The notes beneath the pieces were generated by a model. The model had not been told where the DNA came from. It worked only from the letters and a program-made list of their open reading frames with translations, and searched no databases. From Candidatus Micrarchaeota archaeon (lineage in GTDB: Archaea; Micrarchaeota; Micrarchaeia; Micrarchaeales; CABMGC01): a stretch of 64,000 nucleotides of DNA. Below, one piece after another: positions 5,556-57,800 of the stretch. The position numbers and the translations under genes were made by a program. The stretch covers positions 8,517-72,516 of the forward strand of contig JAJZKW010000001.1 in the NCBI GenBank assembly GCA_021803945.1, read 5' to 3'. The stretch's first letter is position 1. Each line of letters starts with the position of its first letter.

Positions 5556-5560
5556 AAAAT

Positions 5561-8356: not shown

Positions 8357-8377
8357 GCTAATAAAAATGCGCTTTAA

Positions 8378-11666: not shown

Positions 11667-11795
11667 CGATACAGAGTCTTATTTGAAGGTTAAGTTATAA
11701 ATCCGTATCTGGGCCGCATTGGCATGACGTGCAGCCCAAAGCGAACGGATATATTGGTTAATGCTGCAATTATATATGACCTCAAAGGAGATGCC

Positions 11796-13967: not shown

Positions 13968-14032
13968 TATGGCAATTTCATGTAGCGAATCTTATAGAAA
14001 AGTATAAGAATCTATACATAAAATATCAAACT

Positions 14033-22625: not shown

Positions 22626-22698
22626 AGCTCCATCGTCTAGTGGTCAAGGATAACGGGCTCTGAACCCGTTGACGCCAGTCCGAATCTGGCTGGAGCTA
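22626..22698 (+). tRNA. tRNA-Gln (anticodon CUG)
   Basis: 73 nt. Acceptor AGCTCCA/TGGAGCT is a perfect 7 bp stem. Anticodon arm is ACGGG-CTCTGAA-CCCGT with U33 and A37. T arm is GCCAG-TCCGAAT-CTGGC. Discriminator is A and there is no encoded CCA. Confidence 0.85.
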
Positions 22699-33049: not shown

Positions 33050-34464
33050 GAGGCAGACTTGCTGCATGCAAGGAGCTTGTATGCCATCCCTCTCTCCTCA
33101 TGTATTATGTTGTTGGCCTCTTCCTTGTCATCCGACACGCAGTACAGCTCATCCATTCTCTTCCCGTAATAGTGTATGAGCTTGTAGCCCTCATGGTACA
33201 CTGCTGTTGCCGGACTATCCTGCTCGGCTTTCTTCCTGTATATCATACCTGCGTTCTTCGACCTTCTCTTGAAGAGCCTAAGAAGATATGTGTCCCATAC
33301 CTCAGTTATGCCGGTATGGTCAGATACAACAGGCTTGCCGGCTTTTGCTGCCAGCCTTCCGGCCATCATCCCATTAAGGTCTGTGAGGCTGAACGGGCGC
33401 TCGATGACTCTGCCTTCGCGCACCTGCCTTCCCGACTTGAATTCAGACACTATTAGCGGCACTCTAGCCACTTCGTTGTACGGGAAGACGTTATGGAACA
33501 TCTCTCCGTGCTCCATGAATGCCTGCCCATGGTCGCTTGATATGATCAATGTGGCGTCATCAAGAAGGCCGCGCCTTTTCATGATGCCTATAGCATCGCC
33601 TATTTTTGCGTCAAGGTATTCTATCCTCTTCCTGTAGGCATCCTTGGTGGCCTTGAGGTCGTCCTCTCCTGCTTCCCCTATCATGTGCAGCCACTTGTCC
33701 TGCTCAACGTAATTCCTGGTCACGAGGTTTGTCGGATACCCTTCATGGCCTTCCATGTAGTTGATGAATATGAAGTTCCTCTTGCTGCTGTCCGATTTGA
33801 GGTATGCGTCGAGCCGCCTATTTGTCTCGCTCGCCCCCTTGTCCAGGCTGTAATATCCGTATTCTACTGAGAAGTGCCTGTTCAGCCTCCTCCTGAGACC
33901 CAGGTACATCTCATCGAGCTTCTCCTCAGGTATAACAGAGGACATGCCGTATGCAAGCCTTATCAGGTTCTTTCTTGCGAAGTCGCTCTGTATGAGGCGG
34001 AGCACAGCCTTCACCGATGTCCTGCCCGAGTCCAGCTTGTTGTCTATGAATATGTTGCTGACATGCGAGAATCCCTTGGCAAGCCCTGTCGGCTCAGAGA
34101 CAAACGGGTTGTTTGAGAAGAGCGCGCTCCTGTATCCGAAGTATTCCATTATGCTTGCAATCGTAAGGTCATTCGACTCGTACCTCGACTTCCTGAGCAG
34201 CGGGTCCGTCTTCATGTCGCTGAACCTCATCCCTGTCCCGTTGAGCCACGGTATGCTGCGCACGCGCTTTCCTGTGAAAATGGAGAGATGCGAAGGCAGG
34301 GTGTATGTGCCAGGTGATATTGCCATGTCATATCTCGTCCCATTCCTTGCGAGCCTGTCCAAGTTGCTTGTCCTTGCCTCTCCTCCATATGGGCTGAGGA
34401 AGTCGGCCCTCACGGTGTCAAGCATCACGAACACAATATTCTCGCTATTCATAGGCCCGCCCAT
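33046..34464 (-). CDS. Sulfatase-family (alkaline phosphatase superfamily) protein with Thr in the nucleophile position
   Basis: 'VFVMLDTVRADFLSPYGG', 'SPGTYTLPSHLSIFTGK' (aligns to CxPSR but reads T-L-P-S-H), 'IISSDHGQAF'. Confidence 0.7.
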   Translation of the reverse strand: MGGPMNSENIVFVMLDTVRADFLSPYGGEARTSNLDRLARNGTRYDMAISPGTYTLPSHLSIFTGKRVRSIPWLNGTGMRFSDMKTDPLLRKSRYESNDLTIASIMEYFGYRSALFSNNPFVSEPTGLAKGFSHVSNIFIDNKLDSGRTSVKAVLRLIQSDFARKNLIRLAYGMSSVIPEEKLDEMYLGLRRRLNRHFSVEYGYYSLDKGASETNRRLDAYLKSDSSKRNFIFINYMEGHEGYPTNLVTRNYVEQDKWLHMIGEAGEDDLKATKDAYRKRIEYLDAKIGDAIGIMKRRGLLDDATLIISSDHGQAFMEHGEMFHNVFPYNEVARVPLIVSEFKSGRQVREGRVIERPFSLTDLNGMMAGRLAAKAGKPVVSDHTGITEVWDTYLLRLFKRRSKNAGMIYRKKAEQDSPATAVYHEGYKLIHYYGKRMDELYCVSDDKEEANNIIHEERGMAYKLLACSKSAS

Positions 34465-35417
34465 CAGAGCAGCTCAAGATAAGAGAACATGACAGGTAGT
34501 ATTATCGTAATGTCGCCGTCTATAGTAGTGTACCTGGCCTTCTCCTTCACCTTTCCCCATGAAACTGCCTCTGTCAGCCTCGCCCCCGAAAGGCTGCCGT
34601 CATACTGCGATGCAGTTGTTATGTAGACCGCGTAATCAAGCCCCCCCTTGAACTGGTTCCACCATATTACATGGTGCTTGCTTATGCCTCCTCCGAGCAT
34701 GAGCGCCCCAGTGGTCTTGTTGTCGAAGGATATGTTGCTAAGCTCAAGCTCGTCCTTTATCAGGTTGAGCTTGAAGTCGTGGTCCTGGGCGAACAGCGAA
34801 AGCTGCGTGCCGAAGGCGCCATCGAGTATTCCCGGAGCATATATCGGGACGTTGTTGAGGTATGCCTGCCTCACTATCGAGTGCTCGTCCGTCATCCTCT
34901 TTCCGAATTCCCTGAGAAGCTCGCTCGCGCTGTATTCCTTCTTGTAATCTTTCGACCTGTAGATATCGCCCATTATCTCCGCGAAGTACTTTTCGAGGGC
35001 TAGGCCATACTGTTCGCTGCCTATGAATATATTGCCTAGCCGATAGATGTCCATCTCGTGCAGCTTTGCGTCGTCAGCCTCGAACTTCCCGAGGCTGTAC
35101 TTGCCTCCGTATGCCTTGGCTATGTCATGGTCAAGAGTCCCGCATGTGGTCACTATTGCGTCAAAGTACTTGACCGAATCCGCGATCATGCCCCGCAGCC
35201 CCGTCGCGATTATGTCGGCAGGGAACGAGAGGAAGTTGAATGAATCCTTGTCAGCAAGCATGCTCTTGAGTATGTCTATGCCCTCTATCATGTGCTGCGC
35301 AGAGAATCCGCCGATGTTCCTCTGCGAGTCTATTAGCTGTCTTACAGTCATCTTCTTCCTGAGCCTGACGTCCTTGACGCGGTTCTCCAATAGTCTCTTT
35401 TTTATATCGCCAGACAT
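34464..35417 (-). CDS. dys: Deoxyhypusine synthase
   Basis: 'LSFPADIIATGLRGMIADSVKYFDAIVTTCGTLDHD', 'GGGISKHH'. Start set at 'MSGDIKKRL'. The stop overlaps the start of the sulfatase-like gene. Confidence 0.9.
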   Translation of the reverse strand: MSGDIKKRLLENRVKDVRLRKKMTVRQLIDSQRNIGGFSAQHMIEGIDILKSMLADKDSFNFLSFPADIIATGLRGMIADSVKYFDAIVTTCGTLDHDIAKAYGGKYSLGKFEADDAKLHEMDIYRLGNIFIGSEQYGLALEKYFAEIMGDIYRSKDYKKEYSASELLREFGKRMTDEHSIVRQAYLNNVPIYAPGILDGAFGTQLSLFAQDHDFKLNLIKDELELSNISFDNKTTGALMLGGGISKHHVIWWNQFKGGLDYAVYITTASQYDGSLSGARLTEAVSWGKVKEKARYTTIDGDITIILPVMFSYLELL

Positions 35418-35579
35418 AGCAACAAACACCAACAGCGCTTCAGCTGCAATTAAATATTGAGCCCAAAAGCCATAATAATGCGACCTTCGGCTTGAACCAA
35501 CAAAAAATACACTGTTTAGATCTTCAAAAGCCTTGGCATTATGCAAGACAAGACGAATACCTTGAGTATGATTTTGTGC

Positions 35580-37046
35580 TCATACCCAAAAATTATCAAT
35601 AGGTCTGTTATGTCCAGCGCTACTCCACGCCTTCGAAGAAACTCCCTCTACGTCTCCTCCGATTACCTGAGATATGCCATAATGTCTTGAAAATTTATTA
35701 TCAAACCTTCTGTGACAAAGAGAACCAACTAATATATTGGTAATTACTAAAGTCCTTTTCCGAATTCCATTGCTTGATGTATTTTGTAAAAACTCTCCCG
35801 TTTTATTCATGTCTCCATCAGACATTATCGGCATGAATAAGATGGCGCTATCAGGCAGGCCCATATAACCTATCAACGAATATTTATTTACCACTGGACC
35901 ATCTGACATATAATCAGCTAACCGTTTTCCCCATGTTTTATAAGTATCTCCCACATTTATGATATCCAATAATATTATACTTATATATTTTATCCCGACA
36001 TCCACGCTTACCGTTGGCCGTTTGATTATCCCCCGCTCCTTTAAATCATGATAAGCTTTCCTTATTGTTCCATTACCTAAATTATAGCCCTTCTCCATAT
36101 CTTTGAAATTTTTCCTACTATCAGCATTCAATTCATTTAGTGCTATAGCCTCTCTATGGGCTAGTTCGTCCGTGCCAATTTTAGTGTGCTTCCTTGTCCG
36201 CTTCCATTCTTTAGCTTTTAGTATACTTTCCATAGTCTCTTTTCTTATCGGTATAAATGAGTGCGTCTGTGCGAGAACCGTAGTGTACCATAATGAATTA
36301 TAATCCCTCAATTCTGAAGTGCGTCTGATGTCGTGAATCTCTTCAAAGGCACTAATAGGGCTATCATGCAGTGAGTATATAATTAGATCATAGTCTCCAT
36401 TAAGTAATGCAGCGAACTGCACATTAACGCTTTTATTTAATATCCTTCTAATCGCATCCAAAGAAGGTTGTTCGCGCTCAAATTTCACAAATGTCACAAA
36501 CGAGACTAGCCCCAGCTGTGCGTTGTCCAGTTCAAGGAGATATCTCATACCAAACGATTTTTCAAGCCTTTTTATCCTACTCCTTACAGCATAAATTCCA
36601 ATACCTACTTTTTTAGCTATTGTAATTACAGGAGTTCTTGCATCCATGCTTAATATAGTTAATATCCTCAGGTCTGTTTCATTCAGATTTAGTGGTAAAT
36701 CCCTTGCCATAGTCTTTTTTTTACTGCTTTCATCGTGCCATAAGACCTCTCCTCCATGCTCTGCAATTAATGCCTTTGCATTCTCCAAGTCTCCCTTTGC
36801 CGAAAACCTCTTTTTTATATATGCTCCATTGTTAGTTATTCTGCCAAGATATTCTGAAGTCACCTTCGTTTTTTGAGCTTCTTTATCCCAAACTCCGGAT
36901 TGTTTATACAGATAATACCTGCCTCCTATGTTCTTCAAAGTAACGTAAAACGGATACACTTTTTTTACTCTTTCCCAAGTGTAAGCTATTTTATCCGGGA
37001 GAGTTTCCATAGTTATATATCCTAATAAGAAACTATTTAATAACAT
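35580..37046 (-). CDS. Large (488 aa) protein with two Lrp/AsnC-like HTH-plus-effector modules
   Basis: 'LNETDLRILTILSMDARTPVITIAKKVGIGIYAVRSRIKRLEK...' followed by a RAM-like segment. A second HTH-like 'NLGNGTIRKAYHDLKERGIIKRPTV' is followed by another RAM-like segment. The N-terminal roughly 110 aa are unassigned. AT-rich. Confidence 0.5.
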   Translation of the reverse strand: MLLNSFLLGYITMETLPDKIAYTWERVKKVYPFYVTLKNIGGRYYLYKQSGVWDKEAQKTKVTSEYLGRITNNGAYIKKRFSAKGDLENAKALIAEHGGEVLWHDESSKKKTMARDLPLNLNETDLRILTILSMDARTPVITIAKKVGIGIYAVRSRIKRLEKSFGMRYLLELDNAQLGLVSFVTFVKFEREQPSLDAIRRILNKSVNVQFAALLNGDYDLIIYSLHDSPISAFEEIHDIRRTSELRDYNSLWYTTVLAQTHSFIPIRKETMESILKAKEWKRTRKHTKIGTDELAHREAIALNELNADSRKNFKDMEKGYNLGNGTIRKAYHDLKERGIIKRPTVSVDVGIKYISIILLDIINVGDTYKTWGKRLADYMSDGPVVNKYSLIGYMGLPDSAILFMPIMSDGDMNKTGEFLQNTSSNGIRKRTLVITNILVGSLCHRRFDNKFSRHYGISQVIGGDVEGVSSKAWSSAGHNRPIDNFWV

Positions 37047-37180
37047 ATGTTAAATATCAATACAATAACCTAATTAATCCATATAATTATTTATAAAGCA
37101 GGTAGTTTGTATTAATAAAATTTGCCATATTCTATAGTTATTATTTAATATCTCTCAAACCATTCTTTATCTATGATAAA

Positions 37181-37936
37181 ATGACAAACACTACAACGAG
37201 CAAAAAAAGACCTATGCAACTAGAAAGAGTAGCTGCACTCATATCAGAAGCAATGAGAAGCCCCAAGTTCCTTGTAGATCTAATGGAGACGTTAAAACAC
37301 CCAGATTTTAGCTCTTCTCAACTAGAAAGATATGTACACGAATTACACTCCAAACCACTCTCTCCCAGAGAAAAGGAACTACTTAAGCCCGAGGCACTTT
37401 CTGGAATAGCGGAATACATGTTTAGCGGAGAAGAAAATTATATCATCGACACAAGCAAATCTGACAGGAGTCGTTTTATATTCATGGTAAATACGCTAGG
37501 CATATCTAATCAGGAATTGGCAGGTGTGTCATTATCTGTTATTGACAAGCTAATTGCAGGGAAAAAACATACACGTAATGCTACTACAAATTTTATAATA
37601 GCATTAAATGTGATTAAAGAACTACATTTAACTAAGGGAGAGGTGCAAGAGCTGAAACCTTCTATCTCTTCTATATTAAATAAATCCGATTCTTATTGGC
37701 TTCGTATCGAGCATAATAACGGATTCCTTGAATGGGCACTCAGTACGCTTCATTTCACCAATGAGGAGCGTAAATCCATAGGCTTTGACCTTCTTAAAAG
37801 AGCTATATTGATAGGTGCATATGAAAATACACCATATGATACACCCACCTTATCCGAACGAATAATAGAAGCGTTCCGCATTTCAGAGAAAGAATTGTTA
37901 ACTGTTCTAATGCAACTTGCTAAGAGAGATCAATAA
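37181..37936 (+). CDS. Hypothetical protein with a possible central XRE-like HTH
   Basis: 251 aa. 'LGISNQELAGVSLSVIDKLIAGKK' resembles an XRE-family HTH. No other recognisable motif. Divergent from the tandem-Lrp gene. Confidence 0.35.
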   Translation: MTNTTTSKKRPMQLERVAALISEAMRSPKFLVDLMETLKHPDFSSSQLERYVHELHSKPLSPREKELLKPEALSGIAEYMFSGEENYIIDTSKSDRSRFIFMVNTLGISNQELAGVSLSVIDKLIAGKKHTRNATTNFIIALNVIKELHLTKGEVQELKPSISSILNKSDSYWLRIEHNNGFLEWALSTLHFTNEERKSIGFDLLKRAILIGAYENTPYDTPTLSERIIEAFRISEKELLTVLMQLAKRDQ

Positions 37937-38153
37937 ATTCCACAGAAAACCGATTAGTGAAATGTGAAAAAAATGTCTACAAAAATAACAATATTTCCCC
38001 AGATATCTGAGAGAAAACCTGTTGCATATACTCAAATACCAGGTGCAAATACACTTAGGCACTACATGATTTTCTGCACAAATTTTCATAAAATATGCAA
38101 TGTTTTAAATAGTCACAACGTGATTAGTAATTCATAGATTAAGTGGTGTCTAT

Positions 38154-39248
38154 ATGAACAATATTGAAGTAAAGGTGCCTTCGAATATAAAAATATCCGG
38201 TGAACATTCAGTAGTTTATGGTGGACCAAGCCTATCTGCAGCAACTTCACCATATGCAACAGCAACTTTAAGCGAAACAAGATCTGGACAGTTGGAGATA
38301 TTTCTAAAAGACCTTAAGATTTCAGCCTCGTTTGATGAGCCTACCTTAAGGGAGTTATATGCAGAGTATAGCAAGAGAGATATAACACCCAAAAAGCCAG
38401 AAGACAAAACCCCTACTGACCTTGCAAAGTATATATCAAGACATACCGAAATAACGAAAGAAATGCTTCCATATGCAACTATAGCAGCCAGGCTTCTTGT
38501 AGAGCATGGTATAATCCCCATCAATAAACGTGTCGTTATTCATTCGGATGTGCCAATAGGAAAAGGCTATGCCAGCAGTGCTGTTTGTTCTACAGCATTT
38601 GCAACAGTTCTTATTAAATCTTCTGGAAAACAGATAGATGACCAAACTGCCATAGATATCTCAAGAGATGGAGAGCGGATAGTGCATGGAATAGAAACAG
38701 GAGGAAGACTTGATGTTGGCCCAATATATTTTGGAGGATATGCAATTTTCAGTGCTAAAGATGGGATAAGGTCGTTGCAAATTTCAACGCCAATAAATGT
38801 TGTTGTAATGGATGTAGGACAAAAACCACCTACCTCAGAGATGGTCAAAAAAGTAAGAGCATTATGGACTGAAGACCAGTCAGGCACAGAGAAGATACTC
38901 AGAGAAATAGACGACATTGTATTGAAATGTATAGCTGCACTTAAAAGCGGCGATTTAGAAGAACTTGGAAGACAAATGTATGATAATCATAAACTCTTGA
39001 AGAAACTTGGGGTTTCCTCCGACAAACTCGATGACGCTGTTTCTATTGCAATGGCAAATGGAGCCCTTGGTGCAAAGTTGTGCGGCGGCGGAGGCGGAGG
39101 AATGGGCATAGCTCTTGTAAAAGACGAAGCTACAGCTAAAAAAGTCATAAACGCGCTTAAAAGTAAAGGTTATGGAGCATACCATAGCGATGTAACACTA
39201 AACGGCGCAAAGAGTTTCTTAAAGCAGAGAAAAAAGACCAAAGTGTGA
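38154..39248 (+). CDS. mvk: Mevalonate kinase (GHMP family)
   Basis: 'IKISGEHSVVYGGPSLSAA' (motif I), 'PIGKGYASSAVCS' (motif II), 'AKLCGGGGGGMGIALV' (motif III). Confidence 0.85.
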   Translation: MNNIEVKVPSNIKISGEHSVVYGGPSLSAATSPYATATLSETRSGQLEIFLKDLKISASFDEPTLRELYAEYSKRDITPKKPEDKTPTDLAKYISRHTEITKEMLPYATIAARLLVEHGIIPINKRVVIHSDVPIGKGYASSAVCSTAFATVLIKSSGKQIDDQTAIDISRDGERIVHGIETGGRLDVGPIYFGGYAIFSAKDGIRSLQISTPINVVVMDVGQKPPTSEMVKKVRALWTEDQSGTEKILREIDDIVLKCIAALKSGDLEELGRQMYDNHKLLKKLGVSSDKLDDAVSIAMANGALGAKLCGGGGGGMGIALVKDEATAKKVINALKSKGYGAYHSDVTLNGAKSFLKQRKKTKV

Positions 39249-39255
39249 TAACAAT

Positions 39256-40341
39256 ATGCAAAAAACCAGAGGAAAAGTAACTGAAAAAGTTACAACGGCA
39301 ATAGGAACTTCAAATATAGCATTTGTCAAGTATTGGGGCAGAAGAGAAGAAAGAATCAATCTCCCAATGAACTCGAGCATAAGCATGACTCTTGATGACA
39401 CGATGAGTACAAAAACAAGCGTGATTTTTTCAAATGACATGGATTGTGACAGGCTGTTTATAGATGGAAAAGAAGAGGACCTAAGAGGAGAACCAAGCGA
39501 GAAATCAAAATTCACAATGGACATGCTTAATTATCTAAGAATAATAAGCAATCAAGATGCACATGTGCTCATAGTTTCAGAAAATGGGTTTCCATCCAGT
39601 AGTGGACTCGCATCAAGCGCATCTGGAGGGGCAACATTAGCGTTTGCCTTGTCGCATGCGCTGAATTTAGGCTTATCACAAAGAGAAATATCCATAATTG
39701 CAAGAAGAATAAGCGGAAGCGCATGCAGAAGTGTTTATGGCGGTATAGTAAAATGGAACAAAGGCTCAAAAGCCGACGGATCAGACTCTTATGCAGAGCA
39801 AGTAGTAAATGAAAACTACTGGTCAGATCTCACAGACATTATTGCAATAGCAGATCCTTCAAAGAAAAAAGTATCATCTAGCACTGGCCATTCCTCTACA
39901 ATTCGAACAAGTTCATTATATGCTTCAAGACCAGCATTCGCTGAAGAAGGAACAGGGATTGTTGCTAGCGCTGTACTTTCAAAAGATTTTCAAAAACTTG
40001 CAGAGGCGATAATGAGGGATAGTAACAATATGCATGCAACCATGCTTGATACCTGGCCACCAATAATCTACCTAACTGATACATCAAGAGATATAATGTA
40101 TGCTATACACGAATTAAACTTGAGAAGCGGCCAGTATGTCGCTGCTTATACTTTCGATGCGGGTGCCAATGCCCACATCATAACTACAGCAAGGCATGCA
40201 AATGAAATATTAGATTTACTTAAAGATGTTCCAGGGGTAACTGACACAATAAAATCAAAATCGGGAAGTGGTCCTAGAATCCTAGGGGATGACGCTTCGC
40301 TTATAGATGCAGACGCCCTTATTCCACTCAAAAGGCGATAA
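39256..40341 (+). CDS. Diphosphomevalonate decarboxylase family paralog A (candidate phosphomevalonate decarboxylase)
   Basis: 'SNIAFVKYWGRREE', 'GFPSSSGLASSASG', 'ISGSACRSVYGG', 'YTFDAGANAHII'. Lies in an operon between mvk and the isopentenyl phosphate kinase gene. Confidence 0.8.
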   Translation: MQKTRGKVTEKVTTAIGTSNIAFVKYWGRREERINLPMNSSISMTLDDTMSTKTSVIFSNDMDCDRLFIDGKEEDLRGEPSEKSKFTMDMLNYLRIISNQDAHVLIVSENGFPSSSGLASSASGGATLAFALSHALNLGLSQREISIIARRISGSACRSVYGGIVKWNKGSKADGSDSYAEQVVNENYWSDLTDIIAIADPSKKKVSSSTGHSSTIRTSSLYASRPAFAEEGTGIVASAVLSKDFQKLAEAIMRDSNNMHATMLDTWPPIIYLTDTSRDIMYAIHELNLRSGQYVAAYTFDAGANAHIITTARHANEILDLLKDVPGVTDTIKSKSGSGPRILGDDASLIDADALIPLKRR

Positions 40342-41137
40342 AATAAGCAAGCTTATTTTGGTAAAATTAGGCGGTAGCGTAATAACAGATATAAATAAAC
40401 CTAAAACCCCAAAACTGCACGAAATACGACGACTTATAAATGAGATTAAAGTAGCAGGAAAACATAAAAAAATAATTATCGGACATGGAGGAGGATCATT
40501 TCCGCATGTCCCAGCGCAGAAATATAAAGTGAGTTTTGGATTTATCAACTCAAAAAGCGCGATTGGAACATCTGTTACACAACGTTCGGCATCAGAGCTT
40601 CACCACATCATAATAAATGAGATGATAAAAGCAGGCCTATCTGCGTTATCTTTTCCTCCATCGAGCGGCGCTGTTGCAAATAAGAAAAGAATAATCAGTT
40701 GGAATACAAAAGCGATAGTAAAAGCGCTTTCGTTAAACTTCGTGCCTGTAGTCTATGGAGACATAACGCTTGACAATAAACAAGGCGTGTGTGTAGTATC
40801 AACAGAAGAAGTATTCAGATATCTTGCCACAAAACTCAAACCAACAAAGATAATAATAGGAACAGATGTAGATGGTGTCTTTAGTGCAGATCCTCAAACT
40901 GTGAAAGACGCAAAGATCATAACAAAGATAGGAACATCTGATATTAGAAAAGTTGCATTCTCCTCAATTAATAGAAAATACAACGTTACTGGAAGCATGC
41001 AAAGCAAAGTAAAGCTTCTATGTGAGATATCAAAGAAGAACTCAGTAACATGCCAAATAGTGAATGCGCGCATCCCAGGAAGGATACACGATGCGATATT
41101 GGGAAAACCTGTTATCTCCACTATAATTAAATTCTAA
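40307..41137 (+). CDS. Isopentenyl phosphate kinase (amino acid kinase fold)
   Basis: 'LILVKLGGSVITD', 'IIGHGGGSFPHVPAQKY', 'VVYGD', 'IIIGTDVDGVFSADP'. The true start may be downstream of 40307 (35-nt overlap with the preceding gene). Confidence 0.8.
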   Translation: MQTPLFHSKGDKISKLILVKLGGSVITDINKPKTPKLHEIRRLINEIKVAGKHKKIIIGHGGGSFPHVPAQKYKVSFGFINSKSAIGTSVTQRSASELHHIIINEMIKAGLSALSFPPSSGAVANKKRIISWNTKAIVKALSLNFVPVVYGDITLDNKQGVCVVSTEEVFRYLATKLKPTKIIIGTDVDGVFSADPQTVKDAKIITKIGTSDIRKVAFSSINRKYNVTGSMQSKVKLLCEISKKNSVTCQIVNARIPGRIHDAILGKPVISTIIKF

Positions 41138-41152
41138 TCCTACTCGTTAGGG

Positions 41153-41158
41153 TTTTTT
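41153..41158 (+). terminator. Oligo-T tract after the mvk operon
   Basis: A T6 run lies 16 nt after the IPK stop, in the convergent intergenic region. Archaeal terminators are typically oligo-T. Confidence 0.3.
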
Positions 41159-41312
41159 AATTATCCAAAGAAATCCGCTTAGAAGCGTTGGACTACTTAA
41201 CATTGAAGGACGAAGGAATACCATAAAAAATAGCACATAAAAATGAGTCTATGCAATAATTTATCAATCAATAGCTTAAGTAACGTAATCAAAATATACT
41301 TAAATTATATGA

Positions 41313-42464
41313 TTATAACGCTCCAGTATCTACTGTGCCTATGTCAATCATGTTTAATTCCTTTCTTGTTCTCCAGAACGAGTGAAGTCTCTTCTGTTCC
41401 TTATCATCCAGCGAAAGCGCAGCAATAGCATCCTTACCTCCAGCTCCAGGAAGCTTCGCAACGAATGCGCCATTGTTCTTGCTTTCTTCTATAAGCCTTG
41501 TGCAATCGTCAGGTTCAATGCTGACATTGCTTAACAGTCCCAATTTCTTTGTAAGTGATCTGCCTCTGTCAAATGCATCTTTGAATTCATCCAGTCCCTT
41601 GTCATTGCCGTTATTGATCTCTTTCAGAGCATTCACAGTTTTCCAGTTCTCCTCATTTATGTCCATAATCAGGTCGGAGTATGTATCTGGGTCGTTCTTC
41701 TTGAATTCCGAAACACTGCCTACAGCTTGCGTTGTTATCATAGATTCTCCAAAGTTTGCGAATGACAACTTGAAATCTCTGGGCAGTGAGAGTTTCTCTA
41801 TCTTATAATCCCATGATGTCTTTACCAAATCTACAAGCTGTTGGTTAGTGTAATCTGTAGGTAAGTTTTTTACCATTTCAGGAGAATATCTTGTATACAA
41901 TATGCTTCCGTAAGACGCAGCTGCTATATCAAATCCGCTCCCCACTTTTCCTGTTGCTATACTGTGTGCAATTTGTGCAAGTTTATGGAGCGCATCATTC
42001 TCACCGAAACTTATCTCAAACGACTTGAGGATAGCACCTACAGTTGCAACTGTTATCGCTGCGCTGCTACCCAAACCGCTTTTCACAACCTTCCCAGTGG
42101 AAATGCTGTATGCAAACGGGGTGTCATTTTTAGCTGCTATATTAAATCCCGAAACCCTTTCTCCAATACCTGCAGCATACCTAGAAGCTATCTCCGCGGC
42201 AGTCTTGAATAGAAGAAGTTCTTTTGGCACAGAGACCGTAATACATCCTGAATCGCCATCTATAATTCCCCTTGATGACATATTTAGCTGTGGCGCATCA
42301 AGCACTACCTCCTTCATTCTGTTGACCTCCAGAGTAGTAGTTACATAGGCGTTCACGGCACTTACAAATGATATGTTTGGTCTCTCAAGTACGGAGTATC
42401 CGCCTACCCAAAGTATCTTGCCAGGCGCTTTTGCATTCGAATCCTTCATCCCCATACCTTTCAC
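41313..42464 (-). CDS. Phosphomevalonate kinase (ERG8/GHMP type)
   Basis: 'APGKILWVGGYSVLERPN' matches the ERG8-type N-terminus (APGKxLLAGGYLVL). 'KSGLGSSAAITVA' is GHMP motif II and 'AKLPGAGGKDAIAAL' is motif III. Confidence 0.8.
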   Translation of the reverse strand: MKGMGMKDSNAKAPGKILWVGGYSVLERPNISFVSAVNAYVTTTLEVNRMKEVVLDAPQLNMSSRGIIDGDSGCITVSVPKELLLFKTAAEIASRYAAGIGERVSGFNIAAKNDTPFAYSISTGKVVKSGLGSSAAITVATVGAILKSFEISFGENDALHKLAQIAHSIATGKVGSGFDIAAASYGSILYTRYSPEMVKNLPTDYTNQQLVDLVKTSWDYKIEKLSLPRDFKLSFANFGESMITTQAVGSVSEFKKNDPDTYSDLIMDINEENWKTVNALKEINNGNDKGLDEFKDAFDRGRSLTKKLGLLSNVSIEPDDCTRLIEESKNNGAFVAKLPGAGGKDAIAALSLDDKEQKRLHSFWRTRKELNMIDIGTVDTGAL

Positions 42465-43534
42465 TATACCGAATGCTTATTTACAAGATCTTCAGTTATC
42501 AATGATTCTTCTTCTCTCAAAAGTCTAGGGCCACAACCAACTTTTGATGACTTTATGTACTGTATCTCACCATTGTCCTCAAGATCCTTAAGTGTTGCAA
42601 GAACTTTTTCCTGGTGCTTCTTTTCGGTTATTATCTGCGGATTTGGACCAGCATCAAAGGTATATCCTGCTATGTTCCTGCCTTCAGACAGGTTAAGTTC
42701 TTCTATCCTATCCATCACATCAAATGATTCCTTGCTTAGGTATCTTATTGAAGGTACTGTACTAAGCATTAATGCATGCATCTCATTGCTGTCTGCCATT
42801 GCAAGGGCAGCTACGGTATGTATATCCTTATTCCTGTAAGCTTCTATCATCTTTTCAATTCTATTTTCTGCTGATTCAGGCCTTAACCTGTAAAGTGGGT
42901 TTGTTTCTACTGTTTGTTTCATCCCTGACCTTGAAGACACCTTCTTCCTTTTCTGTGACACAACAACTATATCGTCAATTATTTCTGGCCAGTAATTCTC
43001 GTCAAACACCTGCTCTGCATAAGAATCACTTCCGTCAGTCAGATGCCCTTTTCTCCACACCACGATCCCACCGAATATACTTCTGCATGCGCTTCCGCTT
43101 CCCTGTCTAGCTATGATTGACAGTTCTTTTTGGTTCAGTTTGGTTCCAAGGGCTTCATTTACAGTATACACGAGGGTTGCTATTCCAGATGCGCTTGATG
43201 CGAGTCCGCTTGCGGTGGGGAAAGTGTTTTTCGATACGACCATTACCTTCAAATCTGCGTTTGCAAAATTCCTAAGCTGATTGATTATTCCAAATCTCTC
43301 CCTTATTTCTGCATCTGCAAGATTTTGCTGTTGTCCGTCAAGGTAGAAAACATCTTCCTTTAGTTTTTCAGAGAACATCACACTTGTAGTTGTGTGAAGC
43401 ACATCTCCTGACATAGTCATGCTCAAAGACGAATTATATGGCAATATGAGCTTCTCATCTCTTTTTCCCCAGTATTTTATGAACGCTATATTAGGTGATC
43501 CCCGCGCAGTAAAGACTTTTTCATCTGATAACAT
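42464..43534 (-). CDS. Diphosphomevalonate decarboxylase family paralog B (candidate classical MDD)
   Basis: 'PNIAFIKYWGKRDEKL', 'TFPTASGLASSASG', 'GSGSACRSIFGG', 'YTFDAGPNPQII'. The stop overlaps the start of the PMK gene (operon). Confidence 0.8.
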   Translation of the reverse strand: MLSDEKVFTARGSPNIAFIKYWGKRDEKLILPYNSSLSMTMSGDVLHTTTSVMFSEKLKEDVFYLDGQQQNLADAEIRERFGIINQLRNFANADLKVMVVSKNTFPTASGLASSASGIATLVYTVNEALGTKLNQKELSIIARQGSGSACRSIFGGIVVWRKGHLTDGSDSYAEQVFDENYWPEIIDDIVVVSQKRKKVSSRSGMKQTVETNPLYRLRPESAENRIEKMIEAYRNKDIHTVAALAMADSNEMHALMLSTVPSIRYLSKESFDVMDRIEELNLSEGRNIAGYTFDAGPNPQIITEKKHQEKVLATLKDLEDNGEIQYIKSSKVGCGPRLLREEESLITEDLVNKHSV

Positions 43535-43596: not shown

Positions 43597-44259
43597 GTGC
43601 GCATTAAAAAAGAATTACACCTCAAGCTCGATATAGGGTACAAATCGGTTCCAGGAGCCGACCATGCGTACGGAGACAGGGTACTGGCGGACAGCTCCAG
43701 AGGCCTCTTTGCCGTAGCGGACAGCTACGGGATTTCGCCAAACAGGGGCAGCGTGCCTTCGAGGCTGGCGACGTACATGCTTGCAGACTTCTTCAAGGGA
43801 GACCTCCGGGAGGCGATATCAATGGTTGACAGGACGATGTCAAAGCTCTGCGAGTTCGATGATGGAATCGGCGCTGCGACGATGACTGCAGCATTCATAA
43901 AAGAGGGCGTGCTGAGCGTTGCAAACGTAGGCAACAATCCAGCTTACCTCCTAAGGGATGGAACCATGGCAAAGCTGTATACTCCTGAAAAGCCCAGACG
44001 GGACGGCAGCCTTTCGCAGCATATACTAAGCGGGGAAGGAATCCGGCTGCATATGTGCCAACGTGCCCTGAAGCCTGGAGACATAGTAGTCATAGCATCC
44101 GACGGTGTCCTAAACATACTCAATCCCAGAGACATGCTCCTATTTTCCAGCATGCGCATGGATGCGGCAGCCTCCAGCCTGATAGATCTCTCGCAGGCCA
44201 TCGAAAAAGGAGCAGGCGATGACAAGAGCATAATACTGGTGAAGGCAGAGCGTGCCTGA
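43597..44259 (+). CDS. PP2C/SpoIIE-like protein phosphatase domain protein
   Basis: 'LFAVADSYG', 'TMTAAFI', 'SVANVGNNPAYLLRDG', 'VIASDGV', 'DDKSIILV' follow the PPM block order. The usual 'GDSR' reads 'GNNP'. GTG start. Confidence 0.6.
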   Translation: MRIKKELHLKLDIGYKSVPGADHAYGDRVLADSSRGLFAVADSYGISPNRGSVPSRLATYMLADFFKGDLREAISMVDRTMSKLCEFDDGIGAATMTAAFIKEGVLSVANVGNNPAYLLRDGTMAKLYTPEKPRRDGSLSQHILSGEGIRLHMCQRALKPGDIVVIASDGVLNILNPRDMLLFSSMRMDAAASSLIDLSQAIEKGAGDDKSIILVKAERA

Positions 44260-50352: not shown

Positions 50353-50997
50353 ATGGCTAATAAAACCACCAAAATCCAACTATCAAAACCTGAGTTATCT
50401 GCATTACTGGCCGCAGCTCGCAAAGACGGTTTCGATGCAGGTTTTGAATCTGGTACCAAATCTGCGTTTGCGATTGATGAGAAAACCGGGCTATACACTG
50501 AACGCAGGTTTAAGGAGGATCTCGTACACAATATAAATCGTTTCCGTAGAGATAACATCACTGCAACAATATTGTTTATAGATGTAAACAATATGAAGGG
50601 CCTTAACGATACATATGGCCACGATCTAGTTGATGGTTTATTAATCAAACTTGCAGAAGTTATGAAATCTTCTATAAGAAATACGGACAATGTATACAGG
50701 AGATACATGACCGGAGATGAATTCATGATTATACTTGAACATACAGAAACTTCCGGCGCGCAAAAATTCATTGGAAAATTAAATCTTGCGATCGCAAATG
50801 ATCCCGAATTGAGTCAATACGGATTAAGCGTTTCTATTGGAACATCAAGCATAATTGACATTGTTAATGCCGAAGGTGTTAAGGTTATACATGATCCTAA
50901 TCAGCTAGTCACGACGATGAGTGAAATTGCAGATGCAGCTATGCGAGCTAATAAAATGTCACACAAGCAAGCACTTGTCAAGGCGCAAAGAAAGTAA
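50353..50997 (+). CDS. Stand-alone GGDEF-domain nucleotide cyclase homolog (TGDEF variant)
   Basis: 'DEKTGLYTERRFKEDL', 'ILFIDVNNMKGLNDTYGHDLVDGLL', 'YRRYMTGDEFMIIL', 'LSVSIGTS', 'ADAAMRANK' match the ordered conserved GGDEF blocks. There is only about 45 aa of N-terminal sequence and no sensor domain. Confidence 0.75.
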   Translation: MANKTTKIQLSKPELSALLAAARKDGFDAGFESGTKSAFAIDEKTGLYTERRFKEDLVHNINRFRRDNITATILFIDVNNMKGLNDTYGHDLVDGLLIKLAEVMKSSIRNTDNVYRRYMTGDEFMIILEHTETSGAQKFIGKLNLAIANDPELSQYGLSVSIGTSSIIDIVNAEGVKVIHDPNQLVTTMSEIADAAMRANKMSHKQALVKAQRK

Positions 50998-54681: not shown

Positions 54682-54870
54682 TCCAGCATACATTGCTCTG
54701 CTTATACATGCTCCCTTTTTTGTCTGCCAAATCTACTATAAATCCTTAAATACTCTACATCACCCATAGTTTTGGAATGCAATGCAAAGCCGACAACAAT
54801 TAAATACGCACTCACTCAAATATGTGTATGGCAGTCAAACCTGCTTTTATGTGCGGAATGATGATTGGGC

Positions 54871-57800
54871 ATGTTTAAACTTAATGTGATTACAGCCTTC
54901 TCTATTTTGATACTCGGCCTTGTGCTTATCCCTTCTGCGGTCCAGGCAAACCCTTGCGGAACGTTTCCTTCAGGCATGTCGTACTGCCAGCAGCTCTCTA
55001 TAGCAAACCAGCAATCAAGCGCAGTTGCTGCGGGAACGCAGGTGATGCTAAACTACAACGCCCTCGCGTACAATACCTACCTTGCATCGAATCTGATGAA
55101 CATCGAGGTGTATAATTCAATATCCGGGAACGTTCTGTATACGTGGCTCGAGGGCAACACCCTGAACGAGAACCAGGGTACCCTTCTTTCCACGTCAGCA
55201 AACATACTATACTGGATTAACCTCGACACCCCTATAGCTGCAAGCAGCACGGACTCGAATATTTACCTCGCGTACTTCCCAACCACAAACGACCTGTTCA
55301 ATGGGAACAACCTTGGCGCAGCCCCGCAGCTCTACTGCGCAAGCGGATGCCCTACTATTAGCTACAATGCAATAGACAACGGTCAAAAGGTGTTTCCGCT
55401 GCTATACCAGAACTTCGCAGGAACCTTAGTTCCTACTGGATGGGCCAATACTGGAGGGGTCATAAGTAATGGAGTAACGCTGAGCAGCTCTGTAGGTAAT
55501 TCAATGGTCACATCTGCGTTATACGGTCTTAATTCGACTCAGATAGAGGACATATACGGAAATCTTCAAGGATCTAGCACTGCAACAAACATTTATTTTG
55601 GCTATACAAACAGCAATAATGCAGACTGTCTTGGCTGGGGCGTAGGCGGGAACGGAGTTACTGGTGCACCAGCTTCAAATTCCATCATATATAATTTTTA
55701 TGGTAATACGTGTTCACATAGCTCTGCAATTTTTGGAAACCTAAATCCTTCAGAAACAACAAATGCCGTATTCACTACTTATTGGCCCTCGTCAACATCC
55801 ATAATATCAAGTTTTGACTACGGCCCTACCAACGAGATAAGCAGCGCTTATACGGCACAATTGCCAATCGGATCATATGTGGATGGAGGCACTGGCGCTT
55901 TCATGCAGTGGGTCCGCCTTCGAACGTACCCTCCAAACGGAGTTCAGCCTACTGTAACGTTTGGGTCTGTGCAATCCATAAATGCGCCATCATGTACAGT
56001 ATCGATAACCAACCCCTCAAATGCAATAGTAGATGCAGGCCAGTACGAGACATTCATAGCCTCGAATACCAACTGCGTAAGCCCGTATACCTACAATATA
56101 CTCGTGGTTAACTCGATTACGCCTGCAACCATAACACACAACGACCTTGTCACAGGAAGCACTTCATCTTCTATAACATACACCTTCCAGGCTGCAAGCT
56201 ACGATGTCTCCAACAGTCCTGAGGAGGCAAACGTAGTGCTGACGGACTCAGGGACAAATACAGTGACTTCGGGATATTCATCAACATTTACCATAAACCC
56301 CGCACTGGTGGCCAGCGCATCTCCGACTCCAACCTCCCCAACAATATATCAGGGCCAATCTGTCGCGCTGTCGATATCCGCTCCCACTGCAGGAACATCT
56401 CCATATTCATACCAGTGGTATTCAGGCTCATCTTCGACTTGCACATCGGATTCTCCCATTCCAAACGCAGCATCGCTGTCATACACGGCCTCGCCTTCAG
56501 CAAATACATATTATTGCGTAAAGGAAACGGACAATGTAAATGAAGTAGTCTATACCGGCACAGATTTGGTAACGGTCCTCCCAGCCACGAACTTCTCAGA
56601 GACGGGACTGCCTGACGGCGCAGTCTGGACTGTCACATACAACAGCGTAAGCACTAATACAGTAGCATCCAACTCTATATACTTCCACTCCTCCCTAAAC
56701 ACCGGGTCTACCTATTCGTTCATTATAAACAATAGCATAATAAGCGGGGTGCCATACCTGCCCACGCCTTCGGGAGGAAACCTACAGGCAGGCAACGCGA
56801 TCAACATAAAATTTGCACCGCAGAATGTAATAACCCCAAGTCCCACAGAGCGTGTGATAATCCCATTATACATATATCCAAATGCCACTTACTCCCTCCT
56901 TCCGAGCTACATGCCCGGCCTTTACGGCGTTGTGATAAACCCAGACAGCGGTTCAGGCGCAAGCATAAATACGGACTATGCATCTGCAGCCGCGAAGCTG
57001 GAATCCAAAGGAGTGAAGGTCTTCGGGTACGTGCCAACAGGCTACGGAGCAGATCCGCTGTCATATGTCGAAGCCAACATAGTGAACTATTACAGCTGGT
57101 ATCATGTAAACGGGATATTCTTCGATGAGGCGAATTCCATATGCACTACATCAACAGAAAACTACTACAGCTCGCTATACGGGTACATAAAAGGCAATTA
57201 CCTGAGCAATACAGTCATACTAAATCCAGGGGCGCCGAGCGGACCATGCTACCAGTTCTATTCAGATATAATAAACGCATTTGAAAATCCGTATTCAGAT
57301 TACATAAACAGCGTCTATTCTCCTGATTCGTGGGCTTCCAATACCCTGCCATCTCACTTTATGAATATAATCTATGGCGTCCCGAACAATACCGTAGTGC
57401 AGCAGACAATCAACCTTGCCGACAACAGGAGCATTGGCTACGTGTACATCACCAATACTATGGGTGTTTATTCCATATTGCCACCATATTTTGCCCAGGA
57501 AGCAAACATGGTAAATCCGCTGGTAATAAAAAATCCTGTTGCAAGCACAGAGACTGCTGCCAACAGCCAGGCAATATCCTTCAATGTGATTGCAACCGGA
57601 GGGTCTGGCGCATACACATACAACTGGTTCGGCTTACCTCCAGGGTGCACTTCTCCAAACGCGAATTCCCTTAGCTGCACTCCCTCATCTCCAGGCACCC
57701 ATACAATATCAACCCAAGTCACTGACTCATATGGGTTTACCAACTCGTCGTCTCAGATAGTTTTTGATTCAGGAATAATATACAAGGTTCCGATAACGTT

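Follow-up and report, generated by a model that had tools for sequence, protein, structure and literature searches.

A low-GC island in a Micrarchaeota genome probably encodes two parallel lower mevalonate routes to IPP

Which reactions are served when a single archaeal locus encodes two mevalonate-pathway decarboxylase paralogs together with both a phosphomevalonate kinase (PMK) and an isopentenyl phosphate kinase (IPK)? Classical and IPK-dependent routes of Micrarchaeota are already in the literature, and here the predicted genes for both stand side by side in one island. The window, i.e., the whole stretch of 64,000 nucleotides that was analysed, comes from a tiny symbiotic archaeon of the Micrarchaeaceae (DPANN). 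Five intact ORFs in two convergent operons occupy positions 38154-43534, and checking them in the sequence bore out the coordinates and strands given in the initial annotation:

38154-39248, plus strand: mevalonate kinase (MVK), the first step common to both branches; TIGR00549, 177 bits (cutoff 163)
39256-40341, plus strand: paralog A, a putative phosphomevalonate decarboxylase (PMD); MVD-like_N and MDD_C; TIGR01240, 280 bits (cutoff 171)
40307-41137, plus strand: IPK; NF040647, 214 bits (cutoff 120)
41138-41312: spacer of 175 nt between the two convergent operons
41313-42464, minus strand: PMK of the ERG8/GHMP type; its top NCBIfam matches are three PMK models, each below cutoff
42464-43534, minus strand: paralog B, with a canonical diphosphomevalonate decarboxylase (DMD) signature; MVD-like_N and MDD_C; TIGR01240, 308 bits (cutoff 171)

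The top solved-structure relatives of the MVK are all MVKs, and the protein is 80% identical to that of the classical cassette at locus L173, 69% to that of L177 and 36% to that of the MVK-A-IPK operon of L171. The PMK scores 167, 126 and 100 bits with the ERG8, archaeal and Gram-positive PMK models, respectively, all under the curated cutoffs of these models, and lower (73 bits) with the MVK model; its top PDB relatives (3k17, 1k47 and 3gon) are PMKs, and the syntenic L173 has a PMK that shares 71.5% identity with it. The IPK homolog is a true IPK, as proposed earlier, with a model score above cutoff and a conserved catalytic His: K20, G22, G23 and the catalytic His67, the counterparts of residues given as invariant among IPKs in Dellas 2013 (PMC3857490), are kept in 97% or more of the 120 homologues. 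MVK and paralog A are separated by a 7-nt gap, while paralog A and IPK overlap by 35 nt. The start of PMK is ambiguous (GTG at 42464, or ATG 9-15 nt downstream, giving 378 or 380 aa), and the proposed overlap of the paralog B stop with the PMK start holds with the GTG but is lost with the ATG starts chosen by gene callers. The spacer sequence contains an oligo-T run, GGGTTTTTT, about 16 nt past the IPK stop, as well as A-runs (minus-strand T-runs) downstream of the PMK stop, and these runs would be consistent with archaeal oligo-T termination.

Paralogs A and B are 49% identical to each other, and the best solved relative of both is the Sulfolobus DMD (5gmd). Most β-phosphate-binding residues (Y, K/R, S, S, S) are present in both. 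Among 85 A-type and 35 B-type homologues, only three positions are strictly clade-discriminating, and all three fall in phosphate-binding motifs, the positions of which were taken from Table 4 of Dellas 2013 (PMC3857490). The A-clade changes are Asn35, Ser209 and His212, the last being invariant among the 85 A-type homologues, and in this genome Lys29 is additionally changed to Arg. The pocket of paralog A is formed by Arg29, Asn35, Ser209 and His212, with Asp301 as the catalytic residue; paralog B has the signature Lys, Ile, Arg and Met with a catalytic Asp, and carries YWGK and SSRSGM like the Sulfolobus, human and S. aureus MDD. Paralog A also retains Tyr26, Ser153, Ser155 and Ser208 and a basic position 29 (an Arg in this genome and a Lys in 62 of the 85 A-type enzymes), which are the MDD-type β-phosphate contacts of the same table (Dellas 2013, PMC3857490).

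Within the aligned region, the Anaerolinea PMD structure 6n0x differs from its engineered variant 6n0z only by YWGN to K and GH to GM. At these two switch positions, paralog A has Arg29 and His212, the His being PMD-type, and paralog B has the DMD-type Lys and Met; His212 aligns with the very His of 6n0x that is replaced by Met in 6n0z. PMD specificity has been turned to DMD by mutagenesis by Thomas et al., as related in a passage of Aoki 2022 (PMC9254496), and the two residues by which 6n0x and 6n0z differ match the rule given in Zhu et al. 2024 (PMC11052028), by which Lys marks DMD and His marks PMD.

In a neighbour-joining tree with weak deep nodes, A-type and B-type enzymes form sister clades among the DMDs (bootstrap 92), and the His of paralog A therefore looks convergent. 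In the phylogeny, which was suggested as a check in the initial annotation, both paralogs lie inside the DMD radiation, as simple duplication would have it, while the pocket of A is PMD-like. The haloarchaeal-type logic attributed to the A-IPK pair applies to operon and gene set and not to descent, A being neither a haloarchaeal nor a Chloroflexi PMD. Given the position of both paralogs in the DMD radiation and the β-phosphate ligands that are mostly kept, paralog A looks like a descendant of DMDs whose PMD-like pocket arose by convergence and whose substrate is predicted.

The genomic neighbourhoods follow the residues. Across about 160 loci, His-type enzymes stand next to IPK in 12 cases and next to PMK in 0, and Met-type enzymes next to PMK in 42 and next to IPK in 2 (Fisher p = 1.6e-10). 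PMK homologues share contigs with B-type genes 12 times and with A-type genes 0 times, and IPK homologues share them with A-type genes 8 times and with B-type genes 0 times. Both modules, MVK-A-IPK and B-PMK, are met repeatedly among Micrarchaeota, with A-type genes linked to IPK in L005, L168, L169, L171 and L177 and B-type genes adjacent to PMK in L008, L010, L024, L173 and L174; MVK-A-IPK without PMK is found at the cassette site in L177 and L168 and at other sites in L171, L169 and L005. Recurring modules, residues and adjacency thus support the earlier idea that paralog A works with IPK and paralog B with PMK.

The two-route interpretation of the locus is supported, and the 8-kb low-GC island probably encodes a composite lower mevalonate pathway with two parallel routes from phosphomevalonate to IPP. 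One mevalonate kinase would provide mevalonate-5-phosphate for both. In the classical branch, this would be phosphorylated by PMK and subsequently converted to IPP by paralog B, the canonical diphosphomevalonate decarboxylase. In the bypass branch, paralog A, a sister of B in the DMD family with a phosphate-tail pocket altered at three positions, would decarboxylate mevalonate-5-phosphate to isopentenyl phosphate, from which IPK would form IPP. Judged from sequence, mevalonate-5-phosphate is the likely substrate of paralog A, and both branches may be active. The ATP cost of the branches is the same, and therefore no obvious advantage is known for keeping both. In Sulfolobales and plants, IPK occurs alongside a full classical pathway, the combination in plants reportedly having been described by Henry et al. 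in 2015, so the presence of IPK alone does not call for a PMD.

It is a tentative possibility that paralog A is a dual-specificity intermediate acting on both mevalonate-5-phosphate and the diphosphate, in which case the routes would be a network and not separate branches. The hybrid A-type signature, with a DMD-like basic position 29 and the PMD-like His212, would suit such an enzyme, as would the extra PMD activity of Chloroflexota enzymes and the intermediate Lokiarchaeia CR-4 forms proposed by Zhu 2024 (PMC11052028). However, Lys is replaced by Arg in this genome, and A-type genes are never PMK-linked.

Rather unlikely is a reading in which both paralogs are diphosphomevalonate decarboxylases, redundant or differently regulated, and IPK salvages phosphatase-made isopentenyl phosphate, a proposal made for plants. 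In many genomes with MVK-A-IPK operons, PMK was found neither nearby nor on the same long contigs (contig level), PMK-adjacent His-type enzymes number 0/49, and the only clade-specific changes sit in the phosphate-tail pocket, including the His/Met position of 6n0z; moreover, an operon kept for salvage alone would be unlikely in reduced DPANN genomes. This reading does draw on the fact that both paralogs pass the DMD equivalog model TIGR01240 and neither comes near the PMD model cutoff (paralog A reaches 138 bits with the haloarchaeal MvaD model, cutoff 475), as well as on their grouping within the DMD radiation and on the β-phosphate ligands and basic position 29 retained in paralog A. In several A-type loci, HAD-type phosphatases or inorganic pyrophosphatase adjoin IPK, which fits salvage or a regulatory cycle, and in CPR bacteria enzymes with Lys and His are preceded by two GHMP kinases, so that His by itself does not establish PMD specificity.

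The proposed two-route block also stands out in composition, and its surroundings are as follows:

34464-35546, minus strand: deoxyhypusine synthase (DS), left anchor; Pfam DS; NF002294, 417 bits
35547-43596: A+T-rich island with the whole lower-mevalonate block; low GC3, sharp edges
35580-37046, minus strand: 488-aa AsnC/Lrp-type HTH protein; HTH_AsnC-type and HTH_24 at residues 121-163
37181-37936, plus strand: 251-aa ORF inside the island; GC3 0.313; function unassigned
43597-44259, plus strand: PP2C-like phosphatase, right anchor; SpoIIE/PP2C matches; host-like GC3 of 0.606

GC3 is 0.30-0.41 (mean 0.335) in the seven island genes (35580-43534), compared with 0.559 ± 0.094 in the 36 other window genes and 0.61-0.68 in the immediate flanks (DS/sulfatase on the left, PP2C/PMT/TFB on the right). 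The compositional contrast noted initially survives the windowed GC and codon check and is sharper in GC3 than claimed; low GC is confirmed but the figure of 32% is not, since the block has a bulk GC of 0.37-0.43, whether taken in 1-kb windows or gene by gene, with 0.34 at 37-38 kb and about 0.50-0.53 around. Several smaller low-GC patches lie over accessory genes elsewhere in the window, where the other low-GC3 genes are accessory as well (GNAT, an orphan ATPase, a GGDEF protein and hypotheticals, one of which adjoins an AbiEii toxin gene). Of the two flanking regulators proposed, only the 488-aa HTH protein stands; it has weak LysM/LrpA matches and a GC3 of 0.335, and its gene is missing at the cassette site in L173, L175, L177, L168 and L178. 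The 251-aa ORF has no Pfam or NCBIfam match, and the exact protein was found in 6 contigs.

In those same five loci, DS is 83-93% identical to that of the window and is adjoined each time by a different mevalonate cassette; at this site, the cassette of close relatives is classical-only, A-IPK-only or of the Thermoplasma type. L173 has only B-PMK/MVK, flanked by the same PP2C-PMT-TFB order, and L175 and L178 have M3K/MBD(/M3P5K)/IPK. In the nearest relative, L178 (flank DNA identity 87-91%), DNA homology (87%) stops at window position 35493, past which an M3P5K-MBD-M3K/IPK cassette follows. Since close relatives carry different pathway versions at one spot, an essential pathway appears to be exchanged like a cassette. 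The island would have arrived by recombination or horizontal cassette exchange among related Micrarchaeota, with A-IPK presumably inserted into a classical cluster, between its PMK and its MVK. Acquisition of the block, as first suggested, agrees with the sharp GC3 edges and the different cassette of L178 at the same border, while it is uncertain that the block came "as a unit", given that its parts have different nearest relatives (L173 for MVK, PMK and B, L168/L177 for A, L175 for IPK).

Vertical inheritance, with A+T-richness due to local mutational or expression-related bias, is improbable: MVK, PMK and B show 67-78% DNA identity to L173, about like the flanks (71-74%), and no tRNA, integrase or other mobility gene, or flanking direct repeat was found at the island borders, yet the L173 orthologues have host-like GC3 (0.56-0.74), in the much closer L178 the cassette is another one altogether and homology is lost precisely where the island begins, and the other low-GC3 genes of the window are accessory. 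An assembly chimera of two co-occurring strains, with A-IPK and B-PMK cassettes at one site, is very hard to credit, even though the site varies among related populations and L175, with a different cassette, was recovered from a sample that also yielded one contig of the window organism; the locus was assembled identically, with the same order and 100% identical proteins, in at least 4 samples, by different pipelines and on contigs of up to 145 kb, the placement of A-IPK, with the 3' ends of MVK and PMK on either side, would need two crossovers instead of one, the orientation relative to DS is unlike L177, and one composition runs through all seven island genes. That one paralog is a Thermoplasma-type mevalonate-3-kinase (M3K) or bisphosphomevalonate decarboxylase (MBD), such as occur at the same site in L175 and L178, is effectively refuted despite a weak, below-cutoff M3K_C Pfam match of paralog B, since NCBIfam M3K/MBD scores are only 34-65 bits (cutoffs 440 and 560), the island has no M3P5K gene, and both paralogs keep the catalytic Asp of FDAGxN, SGSACRS and a Lys-rich ATP loop, which upholds their initial assignment as decarboxylases rather than 3-kinases.

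Among known systems, the classical (eukaryote-type) MVK-PMK-DMD pathway has been reported in a small number of Micrarchaeota as well as in Sulfolobales (Hoshino & Gaucher 2018, PMC6107057; Zhu 2024, PMC11052028). The window resembles it in having MVK, an ERG8-type PMK and paralog B with the Lys/Met DMD signature, B and PMK being adjacent as in the other Micrarchaeota loci L008, L010, L173 and L174, and differs in the second decarboxylase and IPK placed with the classical genes in one island and in a PMK below all curated PMK cutoffs. The haloarchaea/Chloroflexi-type pathway consists of MVK, PMD and IPK (Dellas 2013, PMC3857490), and the gene set and operon logic MVK-decarboxylase-IPK of the window are alike; paralog A shares the His, and the lack of the DMD Lys, with the Anaerolinea thermophila PMD (structures 6n0x/6n0y), but its sister group consists of Micrarchaeota DMDs (bootstrap 92) and not of the Chloroflexi or Thermoplasmata clades, and A-type enzymes have Arg or Lys, not Asn/Leu/Met, at position 29 and Asn, not Arg, at position 35.

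As in plants and Sulfolobales, a complete classical route and IPK occur here in one genome. Those organisms are not known to have a dedicated PMD paralog, or an IPK in an operon with a decarboxylase as in the window. IPK is present in all three domains (Dellas 2013, PMC3857490). Micrarchaeota have gained Thermoplasma-type pathway genes by horizontal transfer (Krause 2022, PMC8975820; Hoshino & Gaucher 2018, PMC6107057), and the L175 and L178 cassettes at the site of the window island similarly show lower-mevalonate genes to be mobile, although the island itself lacks M3K, MBD and M3P5K and carries genes that fit the other two routes. Finally, the "DMD" homologues of Lokiarchaeia CR-4 were suggested to be intermediates on the way from PMD to DMD (Zhu 2024, PMC11052028); paralog A is likewise DMD-like with the PMD His and without the DMD Lys, in a mixed pathway gene set, but it belongs to a different phylum, most A-clade members keep Lys, and it stands in an operon with IPK with a canonical DMD and PMK pair alongside.

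Five intact open reading frames of the mevalonate pathway are present in the window, at the coordinates and on the strands proposed by the initial annotation, and their families were called with Pfam and NCBIfam models:

38154-39248 (+): mevalonate kinase (MVK); TIGR00549, 177 bits, cutoff 163
39256-40341 (+): decarboxylase A; TIGR01240, 280 bits, cutoff 171
40307-41137 (+): isopentenyl phosphate kinase (IPK); NF040647, 214 bits, cutoff 120
41313-42464 (-): phosphomevalonate kinase (PMK), convergent to MVK, A and IPK; best-ranked models are three PMK models
42464-43534 (-): decarboxylase B; TIGR01240, 308 bits, cutoff 171

The top PDB matches of the first gene are all MVKs. A and B, which are 49% identical, both combine the MVD-like_N and MDD_C domains (PF22700 and PF18376), and their homologues carry the names Micrarchaeota or 'Marsarchaeota'. 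Housekeeping proteins of the window organism fall into clusters at 90% identity or more with a Candidatus Micrarchaeaceae archaeon MAG, which makes it a DPANN micrarchaeon. The IPK gene overlaps A by 35 nt, and its proposed identity held, since it exceeds the NF040647 cutoff and conserves the catalytic His and the Lys/Gly-Gly motif (Dellas 2013), with H67, K20, G22 and G23 kept in at least 97% of 120 homologues. The PMK gene falls below every curated PMK cutoff (ERG8, 167 against 377; archaeal PMK, 126 against 500; Gram-positive PMK, 100 against 166), and its best solved relatives are PMKs; it is predicted to behave as a PMK from its best-hit rank, its PDB relatives and its invariant adjacency to Met-type diphosphomevalonate decarboxylases (DMD or MDD). 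The overlapping stop and start codons of B and PMK stand if PMK begins at GTG, whereas gene callers favour an ATG 9-15 nt downstream. No other isoprenoid gene (HMGR, IDI, AcnX, UbiD-type) was found within the 64-kb window. A 931-aa protein at 5561-8356 was rejected as AcnX, being a true aconitase of the TCA cycle that lies beside citrate synthase, isocitrate dehydrogenase and malate dehydrogenase in a compact cluster at 4533-10850.

The two decarboxylases differ in the pocket for the phosphate tail of the substrate. Both A and B retain the catalytic Asp (FDAGxN), the equivalents of S139, S141 and R144 (SGSACRS motif) and a KKK/RKK ATP loop, which are invariant in 121 homologues. Six phosphate-binding positions have been reported to separate MDD from phosphomevalonate decarboxylase (PMD or MPD) (Dellas 2013, Table 4, PMC3857490); A reads Tyr-Arg-Asn-Ser-Ser-Ser and B Tyr-Lys-Ile-Ser-Ser-Ser, so that judged by these positions alone both would look MDD-like. 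An Anaerolineaceae homologue used as bait retrieved the Anaerolinea thermophila PMD structures 6n0x and 6n0y and a variant, 6n0z, which departs from 6n0x at two aligned positions and no others, YWGN becoming YWGK and GSTQGH becoming GSTQGM. These positions are read as a specificity switch because PMD specificity was turned into DMD specificity by mutagenesis (Thomas et al., cited in Aoki 2022, PMC9254496) and because Lys is conserved in DMD and His in PMD (Zhu 2024, PMC11052028); from the former citation we infer that 6n0z is the specificity-switched variant.

At these positions, B has the canonical DMD pocket (YWGK...SSRSGM), with Lys after YWG and Met in SSxxGM, and GM is likewise found in the Sulfolobus, human, fungal (6xr5), Arabidopsis and S. 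aureus MDDs, whereas A (YWGR...SSSTGH) has Arg29 and His212. We take the two positions to be the equivalents of Lys21 and Met196 in S. epidermidis numbering, the number of the Met being our own count. Among the 121 database homologues, 85 are A-type with Asn35/His212 (Lys29 in 62, Arg29 in 21) and 35 are B-type with Ile35/Met212, with one exception to the split. His212 is thus invariant in the clade of A, while the Lys lost to Arg in the window is kept in 62 of the 85 members. Strict discriminators of the two clades amount to 3 of about 350 aligned positions, namely 35 (Asn/Ile), 209 (Ser/Arg) and 212 (His/Met), all within the two phosphate-tail motifs. The haloarchaeal MvaD model (NF040704, cutoff 475 bits) was not reached by either A (138 bits) or B (132 bits).

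Neighbour joining of 57 representatives (300 bootstraps) groups the Micrarchaeota A-type, whose 11 sequences are all x-Asn-His, as sister to the B-type, whose 9 sequences are all Lys-Ile-Met (support 92%). Nearest to this pair, with weak deep nodes, come Sulfolobus DMD, the eukaryotic MDDs and enzymes of other DPANN archaea, every one of the Met type, and Anaerolinea PMD belongs to a different clade made up mostly of bacteria (78-97%). A is placed with the Micrarchaeota B-type in this tree and not with the Chloroflexi PMDs, and the latter (Anaerolinea, Roseiflexus) have Asn or Leu at position 21 and Arg at 27, in contrast to Arg29/Asn35 in A. The sister position among Met-type enzymes argues that A is a DMD-derived paralog, and the His it shares with Chloroflexi PMD would most parsimoniously be convergent.

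Genomic context separates the two types as well. Approximately 160 loci from GTDB genomes, metagenomes and targeted look-ups were annotated; neither the source genome nor a relative above 50% identity is among the matches listed in the GTDB and metagenome scans, which serve here for broad context statistics. A His-type decarboxylase lies within 3 kb of IPK in at least 12 cases and near PMK in none of the loci listed, while Met-type enzymes adjoin PMK in at least 42 cases and IPK in 2 of the loci listed (Fisher's exact p = 1.6e-10 for the loci listed). Motif classes were assigned by regular expressions, which left about 20 loci ambiguous or misplaced and kept in a class 'other', and alignment-based tables agree. 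The proposed pairing of A with IPK and of B with PMK was borne out by the same modules in other Micrarchaeota: MVK-A-IPK recurs in L171 and L177, A adjoins IPK in L168, L169 and L005, and B-PMK(-MVK) occurs in L008, L010, L024, L173 and L174 (handles of compared loci in other genomes and metagenomes). With the length of the longest contig as a fingerprint, a weak proxy for whole genomes, PMK homologues share a contig with the B-type 12 times and with the A-type never, and IPK homologues with the A-type 8 times and with the B-type never. Among the contigs compared, only that of the window organism carries both modules.

Some loci depart from the His/Met rule. Decarboxylases with the DMD Lys and the PMD His are encoded in L022 and L056 (CPR bacteria) and in L121 and L133 (metagenome contigs); three of the four have Arg27, GHMP-kinase genes adjoin them, one or two per locus and two in the case of L022 and L056, and a neighbouring IPK was not detected at these loci. 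These enzymes call for caution with the His rule. The reverse half-switch, in which Asn or Gln replaces Lys21 and Met212 is retained, is found in further DPANN decarboxylases, those of L015, L017 and L018, with IPK adjoining in L017 and L018 and about 5 kb away in L015, and may be another route to a PMD-like pocket. In five A-type loci, a HAD-family hydrolase (L005:8306-8914, L169:12045-12662, L171:12293-12964) or an inorganic pyrophosphatase (L168:1837-2364, L177:4899-5426) lies directly beside IPK, which may hint at a phosphatase/kinase cycle on isopentenyl phosphate and IPP, or at pyrophosphate removal.

From mevalonate-5-phosphate, which MVK would supply to both branches, PMK followed by B as a DMD would lead to IPP, while A as a PMD would yield isopentenyl phosphate for IPK to convert to IPP. 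The two branches, which might be active at once, are equal in cost, each consuming three ATP from mevalonate. Dual specificity of A is possible, if rather doubtful. An unlikely alternative is that A and B are both DMDs and IPK serves salvage; the basic residue and Ser ligands retained in A, its model scores and tree position, the HAD or pyrophosphatase genes beside IPK and the CPR Lys+His enzymes with two GHMP kinases upstream all speak for it. Clustering of both paralogs with diphosphomevalonate enzymes had been named as evidence for a simple duplication, and the tree alone, in which A and B lie within the DMDs, would speak against the two-route reading; the focused pocket changes and the genomic context argue for a functional divergence of A all the same.

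The five genes lie in a low-GC island. The reported A+T-richness holds in 1-kb windows (GC 0.34-0.42 against approximately 0.50-0.53 around), although the 32% spot value is not reached, and GC at the third codon position (GC3) brings out the contrast more clearly: between 35580 and 43534 all seven genes (Lrp-like protein, 251-aa ORF, MVK, A, IPK, PMK and B) have GC3 of 0.30-0.41 (mean 0.335), against 0.61-0.68 in the immediate flanks and 0.559 +/- 0.094 in 36 other window genes. Both edges, near 35.56 kb and near 43.56 kb, are sharp, the composition changing over a span of about 100 nt. Neither an integrase nor a tRNA nor direct repeats flanking the island were found in 34.8-44.6 kb, the only tRNA being at 22626-22698. 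The island combines a sharp-bordered composition shift and polymorphic content with no mobility hallmarks. The cores of A and B (39574-39842 and 42969-43237) share 71-73% DNA identity on opposite strands, 3.1-3.5 kb apart; as 'inverted repeats' ending the island they were rejected, being merely paralogy, and their geometry could permit inversion or gene conversion between the paralogs.

Other low-GC3 genes of the window are accessory: a GNAT, an orphan ATPase, hypotheticals (one beside an AbiEii toxin gene) and a 214-aa ORF with a Pfam GGDEF match (50353-50997, +, GC3 0.335), diguanylate-cyclase domains being, to our knowledge, rare in archaea. The AbiEii-type toxin with its upstream 256-aa partner (13844-15375, +) and a VapB/PIN pair (approximately 52.5-53.4 kb) are toxin-antitoxin modules in a small symbiont genome, and L168 and L177 likewise have an AbiEii homologue close to the cassette site. 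A 747-aa radical-SAM protein (11724-13967, +) has a central LAGLIDADG_3 match, which coincides with a low-GC patch at 12-13 kb and could be an intein or homing-endonuclease insertion, and a 1745-aa ORF (54865-60102, +) with a Spherulin4 domain and Ig-like repeats is probably a giant surface protein.

The left neighbour of the island is a deoxyhypusine synthase gene (DS), beside which related genomes carry different cassettes:

Window: B-PMK and MVK-A-IPK
L173 (GCA_964878345.1): B-PMK and MVK only, with host-like GC3
L177 and L168 (GCA_023379055.1): MVK-A-IPK-pyrophosphatase; the L168 contig begins at A
L175: MBD-like, M3K-like, IPK
L178:1616-5384 (GCA_054610635.1), syntenic with the window at about 35.5 kb: M3P5K-like, MBD-like, divergent M3K-like, IPK

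MBD, M3K and M3P5K denote enzymes of the Thermoplasma-type pathway, of which L178 has a full set. The left flank (EF1A, S10, AdoMet synthase, HTH-CBS, sulfatase, DS) is common to the relatives in whole or in part; the right flank (PP2C, PMT, TFB) is shared with L173, and a PMT-like gene is kept in L177. The closest relative, L178, matches the window at 87-91% DNA identity between EF1A and DS; homology ends at window position 35493, and its own cassette is also a low-GC3 island (0.26-0.34 against 0.55-0.70 in its flanks). The parts of the window island have differing nearest relatives: MVK is 80% identical to that of L173, 69% to that of L177 and only 36% to that of the L171 operon; PMK and B are nearest to those of L173 (71.5% and 68%), A to those of L168 and L177 (75% and 72%), and IPK to that of L175 (71%). 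Acquisition of the pathway agrees with the composition shift and the polymorphic content of the site; that it came as a unit, as initially suggested, is uncertain in view of these differing relatives. The PP2C-like gene at the right border (43597-44259, +) is unusually diverged, with 39% identity to its L173 counterpart against 90% for TFB and 88% for DS.

A chimeric assembly of the five genes is unlikely, as at least four samples gave an identical assembly of the locus, with contigs reaching 145 kb, the four assemblies are independent, two crossovers would be needed and the island is uniform in composition. Vertical inheritance with a local bias toward low GC is contradicted by L173 and L178. 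As for a Thermoplasma-type identity of either paralog, A and B score 34-65 bits with the M3K and MBD models (NF040848 and NF040847, cutoffs 440 and 560) and retain the catalytic Asp, whose loss is expected of M3K; it was rejected on these grounds, in agreement with the earlier assignment of both to the decarboxylases.

In the simplest reading, an A-IPK pair would have come between the 3' ends of MVK and PMK in a classical cluster, and recombination at the conserved flanks would have passed the low-GC block, whole or in parts, between related Micrarchaeota. We tentatively propose that the A-type is an independent, third origin of PMD from DMD by about three pocket substitutions, that the DS site is a hot-swap locus and that the window holds a two-route intermediate. 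Of the four lower-mevalonate routes known in archaea, three would then alternate at the DS site in near-identical Micrarchaeaceae, and the intermediate would let an essential pathway be exchanged while its function is kept.

How evolution can replace an essential pathway of several steps is an old question, and models of mevalonate pathway evolution postulate intermediates with old and new steps (Aoki 2022, PMC9254496; Zhu 2024, PMC11052028). Such an intermediate, with MVK, a PMD-like enzyme, IPK, PMK and DMD together, appears visible here in a natural genome, and the corresponding site of close relatives is occupied by one or the other single route or by a third. This is unsurprising in principle, and it offers a directly testable natural intermediate for pathway replacement together with a compact, testable specificity hypothesis for the DMD family (positions 29, 35, 209 and 212). 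The predominance of the His type (85/121 homologues) suggests that many Micrarchaeota 'diphosphomevalonate decarboxylase' entries may be PMDs, in which case reconstructions of lipid autonomy in DPANN symbionts would change and new enzymes for engineered isoprenoid pathways would be available.

Previous studies reported the classical route in a few Micrarchaeota (Hoshino & Gaucher 2018, PMC6107057), horizontal acquisition of their Thermoplasma-type genes (Krause 2022, PMC8975820), an alternative route implied by IPK (Chen 2018, PMC5864196), and mixed gene sets with His-bearing 'DMD' intermediates in Lokiarchaeia (Zhu 2024, PMC11052028). New relative to the papers searched are the split of the Micrarchaeota 'DMD' into His-type, IPK-linked and Met-type, PMK-linked clades that differ at three positions of the pocket, an island that houses both modules, and a single chromosomal site at which close relatives alternate between three types of route. 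A third origin of PMD in the A-type would run from DMD to PMD, the reverse of the direction from PMD to DMD proposed by Aoki 2022.
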